In this document: piece after piece, positions 17,984-53,550 of the stretch | Layout: each line of letters opens with the position of its first letter | Numbering within the stretch: the first letter of the stretch is position 1 | Program-made: the position numbers and the translations under genes | Notes under the pieces: generated by a model | Told to the model about the DNA's origin: nothing | The model's database searches: none | Seen by the model: the letters and a program-made list of their open reading frames with translations, nothing else | NCBI RefSeq assembly: GCF_988242995.1 | Contig: NZ_OZ547043.1 | Strand: one strand, 5' to 3' | DNA length: 64,000 bases

Positions 17984-18655
17984 TCAAAGAATCATTTTAT
18001 GAATTACAAAGCCTTCACCCAGATCGCTATTGACCTGTTGCCCGCGAAATTGTGCAACTGCACGCAGGCGATCATGACGCATATAATCGCGTCGTTCCTG
18101 GCTTTTATGTTTTTTTAATGCAGCAAGTTTGACTGTGAAATATTCTTCTTTAACGGATTCAAAAACCTGAGGCATAAATGAAAGCCAGGTGCTTGGGGTT
18201 TCGTAGCCGAGAATTTGTGGAATAGTTCGGCAGGCAACCATTGAAGCTTGATAAACAGCAAGATGATCCTGATGGCGGTCGGCATCATGCATGGTATATA
18301 CCCGCATGATTTCAACATCAGAAGGAATTTGATTTTTAATGATGTCTTCCAGGGCGGAAATCATATCATTGAGCTGCAAATGCGCGCGGGTGTCAGCAAA
18401 ATTAAGATGAATAGTTTGGTGGCACCCTAATATCTTTAGGGCGTTGCGCGATTCTTCATGGCGATCGATTATTCCATCTGTGCCAGAGTTGCCGGTAGTC
18501 ATCACCACGGCTGCGATATAAATTCCTTTTTGCGCAAGACGAGCAAGCGACGCGCCACAGCCCAATTCTATATCATCAGGATGTGCGCCAATAGCAAGGA
18601 TACCCTTTCTTTTATTTGCCGAAGAAAGGATGGCTGAATCTAAAACCTTATCCAC
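17984..18655 (-). CDS. yaiS: LmbE/PIG-L family deacetylase
   Basis: 223-aa ORF with N-terminal AHPDDIELG motif typical of LmbE-like N-deacetylases; recorded K-12 length may be shorter. Confidence 0.8.
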   Translation of the reverse strand: MDKVLDSAILSSANKRKGILAIGAHPDDIELGCGASLARLAQKGIYIAAVVMTTGNSGTDGIIDRHEESRNALKILGCHQTIHLNFADTRAHLQLNDMISALEDIIKNQIPSDVEIMRVYTMHDADRHQDHLAVYQASMVACRTIPQILGYETPSTWLSFMPQVFESVKEEYFTVKLAALKKHKSQERRDYMRHDRLRAVAQFRGQQVNSDLGEGFVIHKMIL

Positions 18656-19263
18656 TTAATGACACTCCATTTTATTTATTATACTACAAGCACAACGATG
18701 CCCGCAGAGACGTAATCTCTGGCACAGACAGATGCTAATTTTTAAGTGTTAAAAATTACTGATAGCTGAAAAATAAGGGGCTTTCAGGTACGGGGATACG
18801 GCTGCGTAATCTTTTATGTAGTTCATATGTTAAGTGTTTGTGTGTTTGGTTTGTATAGTTATTTTGTTTTATATATTGTATTTAGATGTGATTTAGTTTG
18901 TCAATTAATTACATATTAAAAATATGTTCTAGGCACAAATATGGATTATATACATTATGTGAATGTATTATGTGGTTGATTGAGAATGATACAGTTATAT
19001 ATGCAATGTGAATATAATGATTTCATTATATGTATTGCTGTTAATAAAATAAAAGACATTATGTTCTGCTTGTTTATGCATTAATAAAAATGAAGTGCAG
19101 TAACTTACTGAATTGTCAGAGTGGGTGTAATTGCATATTTAATCTTTCCTTTGCCGCTTTTTTGCTAAGAATAAAATCATCTGTGCGATAACGACTAATT
19201 CTTTTAATGAATGTTTTTATTCCTGAATACTGCTCCTATAACAAGACAGGGGAGCAGACAATC

Positions 19264-20226
19264 ATGGCAATTTCATCGCGTAACACACTTCTTGCCGCAC
19301 TGGCATTCATCGCTTTTCAGGCACAGGCGGTGAACGTCACCGTGGCCTATCAAACCTCCGCTGAACCGGCGAAAGTGGCTCAGGCTGATAACACCTTTGC
19401 TAAAGAGAGCGGGGCGACGGTGGACTGGCGTAAGTTTGACAGCGGAGCCAGCATCGTGCGGGCGCTGGCTTCAGGCGATGTCCAAATCGGTAACCTCGGT
19501 TCCAGCCCATTAGCGGTGGCAGCCAGCCAACAGGTGCCGATTGAAGTCTTCTTACTGGCGTCAAAACTGGGTAACTCCGAAGCGCTGGTGGTAAAGAAAA
19601 CTATCAGCAAACCGGAAGATCTCATTGGCAAACGCATCGCCGTACCGTTTATCTCCACCACCCACTACAGCCTGCTGGCGGCGCTGAAACACTGGGGTAT
19701 AAAACCCGGACAAGTGGAGATAGTGAACCTGCAGCCACCCGCGATTATCGCCGCATGGCAACGGGGAGACATTGATGGTGCTTATGTCTGGGCACCGGCG
19801 GTTAACGCCCTGGAAAAAGACGGCAAGGTGCTGACCGATTCTGAACAGGTCGGGCAGTGGGGCGCGCCGACGCTGGATGTCTGGGTAGTGCGCAAAGATT
19901 TTGCCGAGAAACATCCTGAGGTCGTGAAAGCGTTCGCTAAAAGCGCCATCGATGCTCAGCAACCGTACATTGCTAACCCAGACGCGTGGCTGAAACAGCC
20001 TGAAAACATCAGCAAACTGGCGCGGTTAAGCGGCGTGCCTGAAGGTGACGTTCCGGGGCTGGTGAAGGGGAATACCTATCTGACGCCGCAGCAGCAAACG
20101 GCAGAACTGACCGGATCGGTGAACAAAGCGATCATCGACACCGCGCAGTTTTTGAAAGAGCAGGGCAAAGTCCCGGCTGTAGCGAACGATTACAGCCAGT
20201 ACGTGACCTCGCGCTTCGTGCAATAA
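19264..20226 (+). CDS. tauA: taurine ABC transporter periplasmic binding protein
   Basis: ORF 19207..20226; ATG at 19264 gives MAISSRNTLLAALAFIAFQAQA (signal peptide), 320 aa. Confidence 0.9.
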   Translation: MAISSRNTLLAALAFIAFQAQAVNVTVAYQTSAEPAKVAQADNTFAKESGATVDWRKFDSGASIVRALASGDVQIGNLGSSPLAVAASQQVPIEVFLLASKLGNSEALVVKKTISKPEDLIGKRIAVPFISTTHYSLLAALKHWGIKPGQVEIVNLQPPAIIAAWQRGDIDGAYVWAPAVNALEKDGKVLTDSEQVGQWGAPTLDVWVVRKDFAEKHPEVVKAFAKSAIDAQQPYIANPDAWLKQPENISKLARLSGVPEGDVPGLVKGNTYLTPQQQTAELTGSVNKAIIDTAQFLKEQGKVPAVANDYSQYVTSRFVQ

Positions 20227-22678: not shown

Positions 22679-22685
22679 GGGGGAA

Positions 22686-22709
22686 ATGCCGGGTTGGATA
22701 ACCCGGCAT
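22686..22709. terminator. bidirectional hairpin between convergent tauD and hemB
   Basis: atgccgggtt-ggat-aacccggcat, perfect 10-bp stem with 4-nt loop. Confidence 0.6.
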
Positions 22710-22717
22710 AATGAACA

Positions 22718-23692
22718 TTAACGCAGAATCTTCTTCTCAGCCAAATCCAGTGCAAAGTAGCTGAAAATCAGATCCGCACCCGCACGCTTAATCGAACCTA
22801 AGCTTTCGAGCACGACTTTCTCTTCATCTATAGCACCCGCCAGCGCGGCGAACTTAATCATCGCGTACTCACCGCTCACCTGATACGCGCCAATCGGCAA
22901 TTCAGTACGTTCACGCAGCTCACGCACGATGTCGAGGTACGCTCCAGCAGGTTTAACCATCAGGCAGTCTGCGCCCTGGGCTTCATCCAGCAGTGACTCA
23001 CGAATCGCCTCACGACGGTTCATTGGGTTCATCTGATAGCTTTTGCGGTCGCCTTTTAATGCGCTGCCGGCAGCTTCACGGAACGGGCCATAAAAGGAGG
23101 AGGCGAACTTGGTCGAATACGACATAATCGCCGTGTCTTTAAAGCCCGCAGCGTCCAGCGCCTGGCGAATTGCCTGTACCTGGCCGTCCATCGCGGCGGA
23201 AGGGGCGATGAAGTCTGCACCTGCAGCAGCTGCAACCACGGCTTGCTTGCCTAAATTTTCCAGAGTCGCGTCGTTGTCGACGCCATGCTCGCACAGCACA
23301 CCGCAGTGACCGTGAGAAGTGTATTCACAGAAACAAGTGTCTGACATGACGATCATTTCTGGCACAGTCTGCTTGCAGATGCGCGACATACGCGCCACCA
23401 GTCCATCTTCCCGCCAGGCGTCGCTGCCGGTTTCATCGGTATGGTGAGAGATGCCGAAAGTCATCACGGAACGAATACCGGCGTTGGCGATGCGTTCAAT
23501 TTCGCGTGCCAGATGTTTCTCTGGAATGCGCATCACGCCTGGCATGGCTTCAACGGCTTTGTAGTCGTCAATTTCTTCTTCAACAAAGATCGGCAACACC
23601 AGGTCGTTAAGGCTAAGTGTTGTCTCTTCAAACATAGCGCGCAGCGCAGGAGATTTGCGCAGGCGACGAGGGCGTTGGATTAAGTCTGTCAT
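22718..23692 (-). CDS. hemB: porphobilinogen synthase (delta-aminolevulinic acid dehydratase)
   Basis: ORF 22718..23725; ATG at 23692 gives [21 protein letters not shown]..., 324 aa. Confidence 0.93.
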
Positions 23693-24215
23693 GGTCTGCC
23701 TGATGTTTGTGGAATCGAGGGGCATAGTATACCTGAAGCAGGGTAGGGATGTTTTACGAAAGTTGTCGCGATGTTGACAAGAAGAGAATGGAAGAGAGGC
23801 CAGGACATCTTTGTAATAGAAATAGCAATAATTTCATATTCACTGAAAATATTTTTAATCTTTATTTATAGTTATTGGTTATTATTTTTTGGAGTTTGGT
23901 TGCGCTGCTACAAATTGAATAATTAAAACTTTGTTGTATATTCATAGGATATTTATCTGGTTTGTGTTTGTGATATTTATGATGCATATGTTTCAAAAAT
24001 AACATTATCTGCAACATATTGAAATATGGTGTTTTTATCAATTCGATGCGTGTTTTTCTCCATAAATTACATATGTCCACATTCGGACTTAGGGGAAAGA
24101 ATAATTGAACCATTCCTCTATAACGCCGCATAATCGTCAACGCGAAACATAATATGTTTTCTATGCATTGATAATTGATGGATCAACTTATTACGTCCCT
24201 GAGGAGGGATGACAA

Positions 24216-27176
<2,961 letters not shown>

Positions 27177-27190
27177 TGAAGAAATAGGTT

Positions 27191-27873
<683 letters not shown>

Positions 27874-32574: not shown

Positions 32575-33669
32575 CTACATTGTGGTTTTCAATGCGTTAT
32601 CCGCAGCGTGACGCTCCAGCGCCAGCTCAATCAAACGGGTGATCAGGTCGGTGTAACCCAGACCGCTGGCTTGCCACAGCTTCGGATACATACTGATGTT
32701 GGTGAAGCCAGGCAGTGTGTTGATCTCGTTGATCACCACTTCGTTCTCTGGGGTTAAAAACACGTCTACACGCGCCATGCCTGCGCATCCCAACGTTTGA
32801 TAGGCCTGAACGGCAATCGCCCGGATCTTATCGTTGATTTCTGGCGCAATGGCTGCCGGAACAACCACTTTCGCGCCATCTTCGTCAATGTACTTGGTGT
32901 CGTAGGCATAGAAATCGCTGGTGAGTACGATCTCGCCACAGGTGCTGGCTTGCGGATTGTCGTTGCCCAGAACTGCGCATTCGATCTCACGACCTTTGAT
33001 CCCTTGCTCAACGATCACTTTATGGTCGAACTCGAACGCCAGATCGACGGCAATTGCGTACTGTTCTTCACTGGTTACTTTGCTGACACCAACAGAAGAG
33101 CCCTGATTAGCCGGTTTTACAAACAGCGGTAACCCCAGTTTAGACTCCACTTCGGCAAAACTGATGTTGTGACGATTAGCGCGCGTCAGGGTAATAAATG
33201 GCGCAATGTTCAGCCCGGCATCGCGCAGCAGACGTTTGGTGACATCTTTATCCATACAGGCCGCTGAAGCCAGAACATCAGAACCTACAAACGGTAAATT
33301 GGCGACCCGCAGCATTCCCTGCAAGGAACCATCTTCGCCCAGCGTACCGTGGACAATCGGGAAAATGACATCCACCGTCGGCAACGGCTGACCGTTTTGC
33401 GCGTCGATAAGCTGATGTTCATGTTTACCAGGCACCTGCGCAAGGCTGGTCGCCGAAGGGCGCAACGCAATATGGGCAGGATCGTCTGCATTTAGCAGAT
33501 AATTGCTGGCATCGCTGACGTGCCATTGCCCTTGTTTATCAATGCCCAGCAGCACAACGTCGAAGCGACTTTTATCAATGGCATCGACAATGTTTTTTGC
33601 CGATTGCAGAGACACTTCATGTTCCGCTGATTTACCACCAAAAACGATTCCTACCCGCAGTTTTTCCAT
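32575..33669 (-). CDS. ddlA: D-alanine--D-alanine ligase A
   Basis: 364-aa [24 protein letters not shown]..., ATP-grasp. Confidence 0.94.
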
Positions 33670-34131
33670 CTTAAAAACCTATCCCGTCTAACACAAAGTG
33701 CATACATTACCACGACAAAACGGGGGATTCGCGGCCTTCTGACAGAATGTTGCAATCTTCTGCTGACAAAGCGTGCAACGTACTGGTGAAGAAAGTGCGT
33801 TATCTCAATGATGTGCGCAAGATCACAAAAATGATGAACGGGAAGCTAATTTATTCCTGGCTTGTATGGCCATGCAGTGAGTTTTTTTCTCTTAATTATA
33901 AGTTAACGAAGAAAATATATTTCATAACTTTTATTTATAATAAAGGTTGATAATTAAAAGCCTATATTTTGTGTGGGTAATTATTAAAATAAGAGAAACG
34001 TTTCGCTGGTAATCAAACAAAAAATATTTGCGCAAAGTATTTCCTTTGTCATAAAAATAATACTTCCAGACACTATGAAGTTGTGAAACATAATGTTAAC
34101 TTCTCCATACTTTGGATAAGGAAATACAGAC

Positions 34132-34392
34132 ATGAAAAATCTCATTGCTGAGTTGTTATTTAAGCTTGCCCAAAAAGAAGAAGAGTCGAAAGAACTGTGC
34201 GCGCAGGTAGAAGCTTTGGAGATTATCGTCACTGCAATGCTTCGCAATATGGCGCAAAATGACCAACAAAGGTTGATTGATCAGGTAGAGGGGGCGCTGT
34301 ACGAGGTAAAGCCCGATGCCAGCATTCCTGACGACGATACGGAGCTGCTGCGCAATTATGTAAAGAAGTTATTGAAGCATCCTCGTCAGTAA
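34132..34392 (+). CDS. iraP: anti-adaptor protein IraP (RpoS stabiliser)
   Basis: 86-aa [25 protein letters not shown]... Confidence 0.9.
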
Positions 34393-34412
34393 AAAGTTAA
34401 TCTTTTCAACAG

Positions 34413-34430
34413 CTGTCATAAAGCTGTCAC
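34413..34430 (+). promoter_or_regulatory. Pho box (PhoB binding site) of phoA promoter
   Basis: ctgtcataaagctgtcac, two 7-bp direct repeats CTGTCA(T/C) spaced 11 bp, ~60 nt upstream of the phoA GTG. Confidence 0.85.
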
Positions 34431-34492
34431 GGCCCAGACTTATAGTCGCTTTGTTTTTATTTTTTAATGTATTTGTACATGGAGAAAATAAA

Positions 34493-35908
34493 GTGAAACA
34501 AAGCACTATTGCACTGGCACTCTTACCGTTACTGTTTACCCCTGTGACAAAAGCCCGGACACCAGAAATGCCTGTTCTGGAAAACCGGGCTGCTCAGGGA
34601 GATATTACTGCACCCGGCGGTGCTCGCCGCTTAACGGGTGATCAGACCGCCGCTCTGCGTGATTCTCTTAGCGATAAACCTGCCAAAAATATTATTTTGT
34701 TGATTGGCGATGGGATGGGGGACTCGGAAATTACTGCTGCACGCAATTATGCCGAAGGTGCGGGCGGCTTTTTTAAAGGTATCGATGCATTACCGCTTAC
34801 CGGGCAATACACTCACTATGCGCTGAATAAAAAAACCGGCAAACCGGACTACGTCACCGACTCGGCTGCATCAGCAACCGCTTGGTCAACTGGTGTCAAA
34901 ACCTATAACGGCGCGCTGGGCGTCGATATTCACGAAAAAGATCACCCAACGATTCTGGAAATGGCAAAAGCCGCAGGTCTGGCGACCGGTAACGTTTCTA
35001 CCGCAGAGTTGCAGGATGCTACGCCCGCTGCGCTGGTGTCGCATGTGACCTCGCGCAAATGCTACGGTCCGAGCGTGACCAGTGAAAAATGTACGGGTAA
35101 CACGCTAGAAAAAGGCGGGAAAGGATCGATTACCGAACAGCTGCTTAACGCTCGTGCCGATGTTACGCTTGGCGGCGGCGCAAAAACCTTTGCTGAAACG
35201 GCAACCGCCGGTGAATGGCAGGGAAAAACGCTGCGTGAACAGGCACAGGCGCGTGGTTATCAGTTGGTGAGTGATGCTGCCTCGCTAAATGCGGTGACGG
35301 AAGCGAACCAGCAAAAACCCCTGCTAGGACTGTTTGCTGACGGCAATATGCCAGTGCGCTGGCTAGGACCGAAAGCAACGTACCACGGCAATATCGACAA
35401 GCCCGCAGTTACCTGTACGCCTAATCCGCAACGTAATGACAGCGTACCGACCCTGGCGCAGATGACCGACAAAGCCATTGAATTGTTGAGTAAAAATGAG
35501 AAAGGCTTTTTCCTGCAAGTTGAAGGTGCATCAATCGATAAACAGGATCACGCTGCGAATCCTTGTGGGCAAATTGGCGAGACGGTCGATCTCGACGAAG
35601 CCGTACAACGGGCGTTGGAATTCGCTAAAAAGGATGGCAACACGCTGGTCATAGTCACCGCTGATCACGCCCACGCCAGCCAGATTGTCGCGCCGGACAC
35701 CAAAGCGCCGGGCCTCACCCAGGCGCTAAATACAAAAGATGGCGCAGTGATGGTGATGAGTTACGGGAACTCCGAAGAGGATTCACAAGAACATACCGGC
35801 AGTCAGTTGCGTATTGCAGCGTATGGCCCACATGCTGCCAATGTCGTTGGACTGACCGACCAGACCGATCTCTTCTACACCATGAAAGCCGCTCTGGGGC
35901 TGAAATAA
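34493..35908 (+). CDS. phoA: alkaline phosphatase
   Basis: ORF 34451..35908; GTG at 34493 after ggagaaaataaa gives [21 protein letters not shown] signal peptide, 471 aa; active-site DSAASATAW. Confidence 0.93.
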
Positions 35909-52230: not shown

Positions 52231-53550
52231 ATGACCCATCAATTAAGATCGCGCGATATCATCGCTCTGGGCTTTATGACATTTGCGTTGTTCGTCGGCG
52301 CAGGTAACATTATTTTCCCTCCAATGGTCGGCTTACAGGCAGGCGAACACGTCTGGACTGCGGCATTCGGCTTCCTCATTACTGCCGTTGGCCTGCCGGT
52401 ATTAACGGTAGTGGCGCTGGCAAAAGTTGGCGGCGGTGTTGACAGCCTCAGCACGCCAATCGGTAAAGTCGCTGGCGTACTGCTGGCAACGGTGTGTTAC
52501 CTGGCGGTGGGGCCGCTTTTCGCTACGCCGCGTACAGCTACCGTTTCTTTTGAAGTGGGCATTGCGCCGCTGACGGGTGATTCCGCACTGCCGCTGTTTA
52601 TCTACAGCCTGGTTTATTTCGCTATCGTTATTCTGGTTTCGCTCTATCCGGGCAAACTGCTGGATACCGTGGGCAACTTCCTTGCGCCGCTGAAAATTAT
52701 CGCGCTGGTCATCCTGTCTGTTGCCGCGATTGTCTGGCCGGCGGGTTCTATCAGCACGGCGACTGAGGCTTATCAAAACGCTGCGTTTTCTAACGGCTTC
52801 GTTAACGGCTATCTGACCATGGATACGCTGGGCGCAATGGTGTTTGGTATCGTTATTGTTAACGCGGCGCGTTCTCGTGGCGTTACCGAAGCGCGTCTGC
52901 TGACCCGTTATACCGTCTGGGCTGGCCTGATGGCGGGTGTTGGTCTGACTCTGCTGTACCTGGCGCTGTTCCGTCTGGGTTCAGACAGCGCGTCGCTGGT
53001 CGATCAGTCTGCAAACGGCGCTGCTATTCTGCATGCTTACGTTCAGCATACCTTTGGCGGCGGCGGTAGCTTCCTGCTGGCGGCGTTAATCTTCATCGCC
53101 TGCCTGGTCACGGCGGTTGGCCTGACCTGTGCTTGTGCAGAATTCTTCGCCCAGTACGTACCGCTCTCTTATCGTACGCTGGTGTTTATCCTCGGCGGCT
53201 TCTCGATGGTGGTGTCTAACCTCGGCTTGAGTCAGCTGATTCAGATCTCTGTACCGGTGCTGACCGCCATTTATCCGCCGTGTATCGCACTGGTTGTATT
53301 AAGTTTTACACGCTCATGGTGGCATAATTCGTCCCGCGTGATTGCTCCGCCGATGTTTATCAGCCTGCTTTTTGGTATTCTCGACGGGATCAAAGCATCT
53401 GCATTCAGCGATATCTTACCGTCCTGGGCGCAGCGTTTACCGCTGGCTGAACAAGGTCTGGCGTGGTTAATGCCAACAGTGGTGATGGTGGTTCTGGCCA
53501 TTATCTGGGATCGCGCGGCAGGTCGTCAGGTGACCTCCAGCGCTCACTAA
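52231..53550 (+). CDS. brnQ: branched-chain amino acid transporter BrnQ (LIVCS family)
   Basis: 439-aa multi-[36 protein letters not shown]... Confidence 0.93.

Follow-up and report, generated by a model that had tools for sequence, protein, structure and literature searches.

An AT-rich divergent control region between hemB and the autotransporter gene ehaB of Escherichia coli, with a core that is probably silenced by H-NS

The 523-bp spacer between hemB and ehaB is the divergent control region common to these two genes in Escherichia coli. It occupies positions 23693–24215 of the 64,000-nucleotide stretch analysed here (contig NZ_OZ547043.1, RefSeq assembly GCF_988242995.1), which is referred to below as the window. 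The explanation that we favour, with a probability of roughly 0.7, is a region of three parts in which an AT-rich platform silenced by H-NS would lie between a block serving hemB and a block serving ehaB. The spacer and the upaC promoter of E. coli CFT073 are one and the same element, and the orthologue in Salmonella is the promoter of yaiU; in this respect its biology is already known. Because an H-NS-targeted region has been documented for the allelic upaC and the orthologous yaiU, the identification itself adds little. The comparison across genera described below also points to a conserved promoter, a palindrome and a leader hairpin on the ehaB side of the spacer.

Genomic context

The RefSeq annotations of K-12 and of a strain that is 99.8% identical place the coding sequence of hemB (porphobilinogen synthase) at 22718–23692 on the minus strand. 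Its start codon ends at 23692 and the ATG of ehaB is at 24216, leaving a spacer that is exactly intergenic. An alternative, longer hemB ORF extends to 23725, and this extension is not conserved in Citrobacter. On the plus strand, ehaB (the yaiT/upaC locus; 24216–27164) is intact and encodes an autotransporter adhesin of 982 amino acids. The product matches the Pfam Autotransporter beta-domain, and its match to the autochaperone domain is sub-threshold (21.6 bits against a cut-off of 27.1). The name ehaB is the one given by RefSeq in the 99.8%-identical strain. Immediately 3' of ehaB is iprA (yaiV; 27250–27873, plus strand), annotated as a winged-helix DNA-binding protein and matching Pfam HTH_46.

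The gene order tauABCD, hemB, autotransporter, iprA, ampH and sbmA is that of the E. coli yaiT locus. In K-12 a spacer of identical length (523 bp) lies upstream of yaiT, which is split there by IS3, and in CFT073 a 995-aa autotransporter sits between hemB and iprA. EhaB and UpaC represent variants of a single gene ('EhaB, also called UpaC'; PMC8281228). A preliminary description, made from the letters of the DNA alone, had called the segment a leader upstream of yaiT. This is a misnomer: the spacer lies between divergent hemB and autotransporter ORFs and is therefore a control region, not simply a leader. It probably carries the hemB promoter as well, and the predicted ehaB leader is merely ~75 nt long.

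Base composition

The spacer is 33.7% GC, against 51.4% for the whole window (standard deviation 5.4% for 523-bp windows), and is among about five low-GC spots within the 64 kb. The description of ~520 bp of strongly AT-rich DNA was thus correct as to AT-richness and coordinates and too generous as to extent. The 108 bp nearest hemB (23693–23800) are 48% GC, so the AT-rich part amounts to ~415 bp. Within it, positions 23801–24100 are 27% GC, and the minimum of 24.5% is reached at 23800–23999. The portion from 23801 to 24072 (~27% GC) is presumed, on the grounds of its composition and of published work on upaC and yaiU, to be the platform for H-NS nucleation and spreading. As in H-NS-silenced regions, the AT content is far above the genome average and the promoter is included in the AT-rich DNA. 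The 5' half of ehaB is itself 41–47% GC, which would allow H-NS to spread into the gene.

Conservation across genera

Relatives of the EhaB translocator domain are encoded at 73 loci, taken from one genome per species and including no Salmonella locus. It was possible to locate hemB together with the start of the autotransporter gene in 49 of these, from ~15 genera of Enterobacteriaceae that include Escherichia, Citrobacter, Enterobacter, Lelliottia, Kluyvera, Trabulsiella, Pseudocitrobacter, Leclercia, Superficieibacter, Raoultella and Yokenella. The spacer measures 371–617 bp and 31–44% GC in all 49 of these other species. When 53 spacers are aligned, both ends are conserved and the middle is unalignable between genera. 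The aligned 200-bp middle is nevertheless 20–28% GC in all 10 of the Escherichia and Citrobacter sequences that were measured.

The conserved block at the hemB end (23693–23768, minus strand) is found in the 49 species and contains the hemB ribosome-binding region. It includes a minus-strand −10-like element, TATACT (23726–23731), of which the T-A-n-A-n-T pattern is conserved. A second conserved minus-strand box, CAACTTTCGTAAAACA (~23750–23766), overlies the −35 position. From these elements we infer that the hemB promoter lies within the block.

The core of the spacer shows a different kind of conservation. The comparison suggests that selection keeps length and base composition, not sequence, in the ~270-bp core; this claim shares the probability given above to the explanation as a whole. 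Such selection would account for a core that is unalignable between genera and that falls into deep haplogroups within E. coli. Conserved length and composition with replaceable sequence are, in turn, what would be expected of DNA read by a protein that senses composition or shape. The spacer thus provides a clean natural example of length and composition conserved over ~15 genera where sequence is not, and this pattern is a prediction for a silencing platform read by DNA shape.

Variation within E. coli

Both flanks of the core are strongly conserved within the species. The hemB gene is present at ≥95% identity in 5423 of 5425 E. coli records (98–99% identical), and the 143 bp nearest ehaB are present at ≥95% in 5394 of 5411. 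Between them, positions 23873–24072 form a hypervariable zone. Identity to the window over this zone is bimodal in 5398 records: 2689 are at ≥90%, 480 at 80–90% and 2229 at 60–80%. An alignment of eight alleles resolves at least three haplogroups, represented by K-12 and the window, by CFT073 and by O157. The window/K-12 type is 67–69% identical to the CFT073 and O157 types, and the identity between those two is 77%. Another E. coli genome (L010), 67–69% identical to all three types in the alignment, may represent a fourth. All of the haplogroups are 24–28% GC and 200–202 bp long. Over the whole spacer the window is ~84% identical to CFT073, and 68% identical in the AT-rich core; this divergence was counted against the overall explanation.

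The haplotype of the spacer is not linked to the passenger allele of the adhesin. K-12 and AMSCJX03 have identical spacers, and pairwise alignment gives ~53% nucleotide identity between their passengers. Conversely, the window and O157 both carry an EhaB-type passenger yet differ in the spacer core. The combination found in the window's spacer is rare, with 4 genomes at ≥99% over the full length.

These data bear on the possibility that the AT-rich DNA has no function, as neutral filler or a horizontally acquired remnant that arrived together with the autotransporter. In that case relaxed constraint, together with recombination driven by selection on the antigenically variable passenger domain, would account for its hypervariability. 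The unalignable middle agrees with this, as do the 67–81% identity between E. coli haplogroups, passenger alleles that are ~50% identical at the nucleotide level, and a spacer in which no motif, curvature or repeat reaches significance. However, filler under no selection ought to shrink or to drift toward genomic composition, and instead a length of 371–617 bp and a low GC content are kept in all 49 species beside flanking genes of >50% GC. The lack of linkage between spacer and passenger in K-12 and AMSCJX03 also argues against it, as does the binding of H-NS demonstrated at the orthologous promoter (PMC10657408). We consider a functionless spacer unlikely.

H-NS at the allelic and orthologous promoters

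Our preferred reading, a platform silenced by H-NS, draws on published work at both the allele and the orthologue. In PMC5012682, which cites Allsopp 2012, UpaC is named among the H-NS-repressed autotransporters of uropathogenic E. coli. In Salmonella the positional orthologue is seaB (formerly yaiU), which lies beside hemB and upstream of iprA (PMC13248724). Salmonella yaiU is treated as a known H-NS-repressed gene, and H-NS binds its promoter in EMSA, in ITC (Kd 0.29–0.46 µM) and in ChIP-qPCR; this binding is blocked by c-di-GMP (PMC10657408). A genomic SELEX study in K-12 assigns H-NS to the yaiU–yaiV spacer, which lies downstream (PMC3946193). Our literature searches found no paper joining 'yaiT' with 'H-NS', and 'hemB' with 'H-NS' gave only irrelevant matches. 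The ExcludonFinder mention of this locus concerns yaiT–ytiB and not the hemB–ehaB spacer.

Taken by analogy with these promoters, H-NS probably silences the ehaB promoter, and its occupancy of the spacer in the window's strain may be inferred on the same grounds. The suggestion that the region is typical of H-NS-silenced surface-protein promoters is therefore supported by the composition conserved in 49 species, by the binding at yaiU and by the repression reported for upaC.

The favoured explanation can be set out along the spacer. The ~75 bp beside hemB would hold the hemB promoter and ribosome-binding region. The adjoining ~270 bp of 27%-GC DNA would be the platform on which H-NS, probably together with StpA, nucleates before spreading into the AT-rich 5' half of ehaB. 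Coverage by H-NS would silence both the promoter-like pair TTGAAC-18-CATAAT and spurious promoter-like sites elsewhere in the spacer. The ~140 bp beside ehaB would carry the real sigma-70 promoter and, at about −60, where activators or anti-silencers typically bind, a palindrome. A regulator bound to this palindrome, and possibly also to a box near +35, might counteract or reinforce silencing, and a leader hairpin that buries the Shine-Dalgarno sequence could act as a translational brake. Expression of ehaB would then need relief from H-NS, and by analogy with Salmonella a rise in c-di-GMP may provide it. Relief of silencing by c-di-GMP would fit a biofilm adhesin.

The phenotypes of SeaB and EhaB have been seen only on overexpression, and repressed expression in vitro has been suggested as one possible reason (PMC13248724). 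The EhaB, UpaC and SeaB adhesins are vaccine candidates, and their parent strains show no phenotype in vitro, possibly as a result of this repression (PMC13248724).

Short motifs, curvature and factor sites

The preliminary description had drawn attention to runs such as TTTTAATCTTTATTTATAG, to repeated TGTTTG and ATATTT motifs and to a curved appearance. The string TTTTAATCTTTATTTATAG is present at 23853, within an AT-rich sub-block (23806–23872) that is nearly invariant in the eight E. coli alleles and conserved within Escherichia only. TGTTTG occurs twice and ATATTT three times in the spacer. These counts are matched by 5% and 9% of dinucleotide-preserving shuffles, respectively, and are no more than the composition gives by chance. 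A/T tracts of at least four number 9, against a shuffle mean of 9.4.

Curvature was calculated with our own implementation of the Bolshoy wedge model. Mean predicted curvature of the region is at the 91.6th percentile of the window. The model places one sharp local bend at 24025–24065, with 20 degrees per turn, a maximum that is reached by 14% of shuffles of the region. The bend arises from two phased GTGTTTTT boxes 21 bp apart (24029–24042 and 24050–24063). The 10–11-bp periodicity of AA/TT is not significant (p = 0.17). Thus neither the bend nor the periodicity goes beyond what the composition provides, and the same holds for the curved appearance. Many species, though not all, have a predicted bend between about −170 and −200 relative to the ATG, and the curvature peak keeps its place only in part from one species to another.

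Adjoining the predicted bend is TCCATAAATT (24059–24068), which is one mismatch from the high-affinity H-NS motif TCGATAAATT and occurs at a frequency expected by chance; with it, the bend region extends over 24025–24068. Nucleation motifs and intrinsic curvature are common among H-NS targets and are not obligatory. The lack of significance of the motif match and of the bend was counted against the overall explanation. Scans of the spacer for H-NS, IHF, Fis, CRP, Lrp, Fur and OxyR motifs gave nothing above shuffles except one-mismatch IHF-like sites (6 against 1.4 in mononucleotide shuffles). This excess is not relied on, because there is no exact match among the sites and the mononucleotide control is blind to dinucleotide bias.

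The ehaB promoter, palindrome and leader

In the conserved block at the ehaB end (24074–24215), the promoter scan and the alignment both point to a core promoter on the plus strand at 24105–24134. It consists of a −35 element TTGAAC (24105–24110), an 18-nt spacer and a −10 element CATAAT (24129–24134), and so has the near-consensus hexamers and 16–18-nt separation of a sigma-70 promoter. All six bases of the −10 element are invariant in the 53 sequences. Four bases of the −35 element likewise never vary, and the remaining two are retained in 52 of the 53. On this conservation, the pair is probably the ehaB promoter. The position of the −10 element would place the transcription start at ~24141.

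Upstream of the promoter is a palindrome of the form GTCYG-N4-CRGAC, here GTCCACATTCGGAC (24075–24088), the centre of which is at about −60 relative to the predicted start. Across the 53 sequences its arms change little or not at all, with G24075, T24076, C24084, A24087 and C24088 the same throughout, and the centre varies. A search of 625 kb of related loci for the strict pattern gave 35 occurrences, all of them 123–145 bp upstream of the autotransporter ATG. Elsewhere in the window there are 10 matches with at most one mismatch against 4.9 expected, and the only perfect one is within a coding ORF. Judged by its placement and its conserved arms, the palindrome has about an even chance of being a protein operator, for which a dimeric regulator would be the candidate.

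That this regulator is IprA is doubtful at best. No second copy of the palindrome is found near iprA in any related locus, and there is therefore no hint of IprA autoregulation. The papers on CyuR and HusR that touch this locus concern yaiV only.

The predicted 5' leader of ehaB (24141–24215, ~75 nt) has conservation of 0.77–0.93 across genera. It contains a conserved box, TTGATGGATCAAC (24175–24187), and a hairpin, CGUCCCU-GAGG-AGGGAUG (24194–24211), that encloses the Shine-Dalgarno sequence GAGGAGGG. RNAalifold predicts this hairpin with 7 pairs at −10.2 kcal/mol. Its five core pairs hardly vary (a single break among 130 cells), and for this reason covariation neither supports nor contradicts the structure. 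Conservation of the UCCCU arm (24196–24200, opposite AGGGA at 24205–24209) suggests pairing, as no other obvious reason for it presents itself. The multiple regulatory inputs proposed for the region are plausible, since two conserved palindromic boxes flank the core promoter. Within the limited literature that was accessible, the palindrome and the leader hairpin possibly have not been described before.

A more far-reaching interpretation, which we hold tentatively and think less likely than not to be right in full, is that, in addition to general silencing by H-NS, these elements form a dedicated module of the ehaB/seaB family in at least 15 genera. The module would comprise the −60 operator palindrome and the hairpin that sequesters the Shine-Dalgarno sequence. 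If so, the adhesin would be made only when relief of silencing, activation and translational unmasking coincide. Separately, selection on the 200-bp core would maintain its composition and length and permit, or even favour, wholesale replacement of its sequence within the species. One candidate for the regulator under this interpretation is IprA, whose gene directly follows ehaB in every genome. In any case the comparative footprint supplies precise targets for mutagenesis (the promoter, the candidate operator and the hairpin at the ribosome-binding site) through which the expression of EhaB, UpaC and SeaB can be addressed.

Phase variation

Many E. coli adhesins are phase-variable, and the preliminary description allowed for phase-variation elements in this region. 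A device switching ehaB ON and OFF could be a fimS-like invertible promoter, a methylation switch of the Dam/OxyR or Dam/Lrp kind such as those of agn43 and pap, or a slipped-strand repeat. Among the features that might favour one are short inverted repeats and the location of the sole GATC (24181) within the conserved leader box, and UpaE offers an example of a phase-variable E. coli adhesin (PMC6083910). However, none of these repeats is long or perfect: there are 14-nt arms at 79% and 10-nt arms at 90%, and one of the pairs has an arm inside hemB. No pair brackets the conserved ehaB promoter, which lies outside all of them. No recombinase gene is present among the neighbours tauABCD, hemB, ehaB, iprA and ampH. 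The spacer is matched as one colinear place in 5380 of 5422 E. coli records, and no inverted orientation is seen among these 5380 matches. One record sampled from the remaining 42 has an IS1 insertion with a deletion.

The other two types of switch fare no better. The single GATC compares with a shuffle mean of 2.0, whereas a Dam-type switch has at least two inside OxyR or Lrp operators, and OxyR-like and Lrp-like matches in the spacer are at chance level only. Tandem Repeats Finder (minimum score 30) returned no tandem repeats in the spacer, and the longest homopolymer is T6, leaving no substrate of the kind used in slipped-strand variation. A phase-variation device is thus largely refuted by the lack of repeats, of a GATC cluster and of a recombinase and by the colinearity of the population. 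The chance that one operates here is very slight, and the idea can be dropped for the hemB–ehaB locus.

Small genes, RNAs and a long leader

It might also be supposed that transcription runs through most of the spacer, yielding an extended 5' leader of ehaB or else a small RNA or small protein missing from the annotation, and that control is mainly post-transcriptional. Transcription would then begin at an upstream promoter-like site such as CTGAAA-18-TATAGT (23843–23872, plus strand). The spacer contains 5 promoter-like sites against 3.0 expected, the sub-block that includes this one (23806–23872) is conserved within Escherichia, and several small ORFs are present. However, the upstream sites are not conserved beyond Escherichia, while TTGAAC-18-CATAAT is found in all 53 sequences. 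None of the small ORFs survives in all the E. coli alleles, each being interrupted or without its start codon in one or more of the others. Rfam 15 covariance models gave no match at E ≤ 1 on either strand of 23300–24700, no terminator-like site occurs inside the spacer, and the K-12 record has no annotated feature between hemB and yaiT. A largely transcribed spacer is accordingly quite improbable, if somewhat less so than a phase switch.

The search for small ORFs and for the inverted repeats of an invertible element that had been proposed as a check therefore yielded no conserved ORF and only the imperfect repeats of 10–14 nt. With tandem repeats, a nearby recombinase, ORFs intact in every allele, Rfam matches and terminators all lacking, phase variation, a small protein and a small RNA are each unsupported.

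Relation to known control regions

The closest counterpart is the upaC region of CFT073 (Allsopp et al. 2012, Infect Immun 80:321). It occupies the same hemB–iprA locus with an allelic gene, and its 525-bp AT-rich spacer has an identical core promoter, palindrome position and leader. The H-NS repression of UpaC noted above belongs to this region. It differs from the window in belonging to another haplogroup (68% identity over 23873–24072) and in a passenger that is ~50% identical. The yaiU (seaB) region of Salmonella Typhimurium is similar in its position beside hemB and upstream of iprA, in serving an autotransporter with adhesin and biofilm roles, and as an H-NS target relieved by c-di-GMP (PMC10657408; PMC13248724). 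It is from another genus, where the palindrome, promoter and hairpin are expected by extrapolation from Citrobacter and ~14 other genera.

The agn43 (flu) gene is subject to Dam/OxyR phase variation, with three GATC sites inside the OxyR operator. Its control region resembles the ehaB spacer in serving a self-associating or biofilm autotransporter of E. coli, but the ehaB spacer has one GATC and chance-level OxyR-like matches. Switches of the fimS type, as at UpaE (PMC6083910), share AT-rich, promoter-bearing DNA, ~300 bp long, upstream of an adhesin gene and the involvement of H-NS, IHF and Lrp. The ehaB spacer differs from these in that it lacks perfect inverted repeats at its flanks and a tyrosine recombinase beside it, and in that none of the 5380 colinear E. 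coli records shows it inverted. The spacer is thus not a switch of the fimS, agn43 or simple-repeat kind, because the defining features of each were tested for and are not present.

Intergenic regions of E. coli have reportedly been 'switched', or replaced horizontally, in studies by Oren et al. (2014, PNAS) and by Thorpe et al. (2018, 'Piggy'). The ehaB spacer resembles such regions in presenting highly divergent alternative sequences between conserved genes within one species. It differs in that replacement is confined to the central 200 bp, with both promoter-proximal blocks at ≥95% identity, and in that the composition is the same in every haplogroup.

Mosaic structure of the autotransporter locus

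The ehaB/yaiT/upaC locus, whose names all refer to one E. coli autotransporter gene, is a recombination mosaic. The passenger domains (window 24216-27164; comparison loci L002, L003 and L004-L008) fall into very divergent allele families that share only ~50% nucleotide identity beyond the first 150 nt. K-12 and AMSCJX03 have identical hemB–ehaB spacers but different passengers, and passenger allele and spacer haplotype are therefore not linked. The spacer itself contains a 200-bp AT-rich stretch (window 23873-24072) with deep haplogroups inside E. coli, where identity is ≥90% in 2689 records and 60–80% in 2229. The flanks on both sides of this stretch are ≥95% identical in >99% of genomes. Both a GC content of 24–28% and a length of ~200 bp are kept in every haplogroup.

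Insertion sequences repeatedly inactivate the autotransporter gene, as in three of the compared loci (L002 5710-6967; L006 2375-3523; L009 3105-3963). IS3 interrupts the gene in two strains, K-12 and 08_3449. In strain 4848, IS1 lies ~53 bp into the hemB–ehaB spacer, and the remaining spacer is deleted together with nearly the whole gene. The window copy is intact.

A 444-bp low-coverage contig labelled Xanthobacter autotrophicus (L082, NZ_JAIVFN010000423.1) is 100% identical to a fragment of E. coli ehaB, and is probably contamination. Citrobacter youngae carries a second, paralogous translocator elsewhere in its genome, which is 72% identical (Citrobacter loci L068/L071).

Neighbouring spacers and other low-GC regions

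On the 3' side of the autotransporter gene, the yaiU>yaiV spacer of K-12 carries an RpoD promoter (TTCACT-18-TTTAAT) and also an H-NS mark in a genomic-SELEX study (PMC3946193). This mark suggests that H-NS may make contact on this flank too. The corresponding ehaB-iprA spacer in the window (27165-27249) has a GC content of ~38–41%. To the left of hemB, the tauD-hemB spacer is 39 bp long in both the window (22679-22717) and CFT073, compared with 106 bp in K-12, which therefore has an extra element of ~67 bp that could be a REP-type repeat.

Low-GC regions, defined as 523-bp windows with GC <38%, are also found at ~18431-19430, upstream of tauA (minimum 28.5% GC), at ~33521-34500 (minimum 33.8%) and at ~56871-58500 (minimum 32.1%). 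These could represent further H-NS-type regions.

The palindrome pattern conserved upstream of the ehaB promoter (GTCYG-N4-CRGAC) has another perfect match, GTCTGGGTTCAGAC, at window 52973-52986, within a 439-aa ORF (52231-53550). Since there are 10 matches with at most one mismatch in the window, versus 4.9 expected, this occurrence is probably due to chance.
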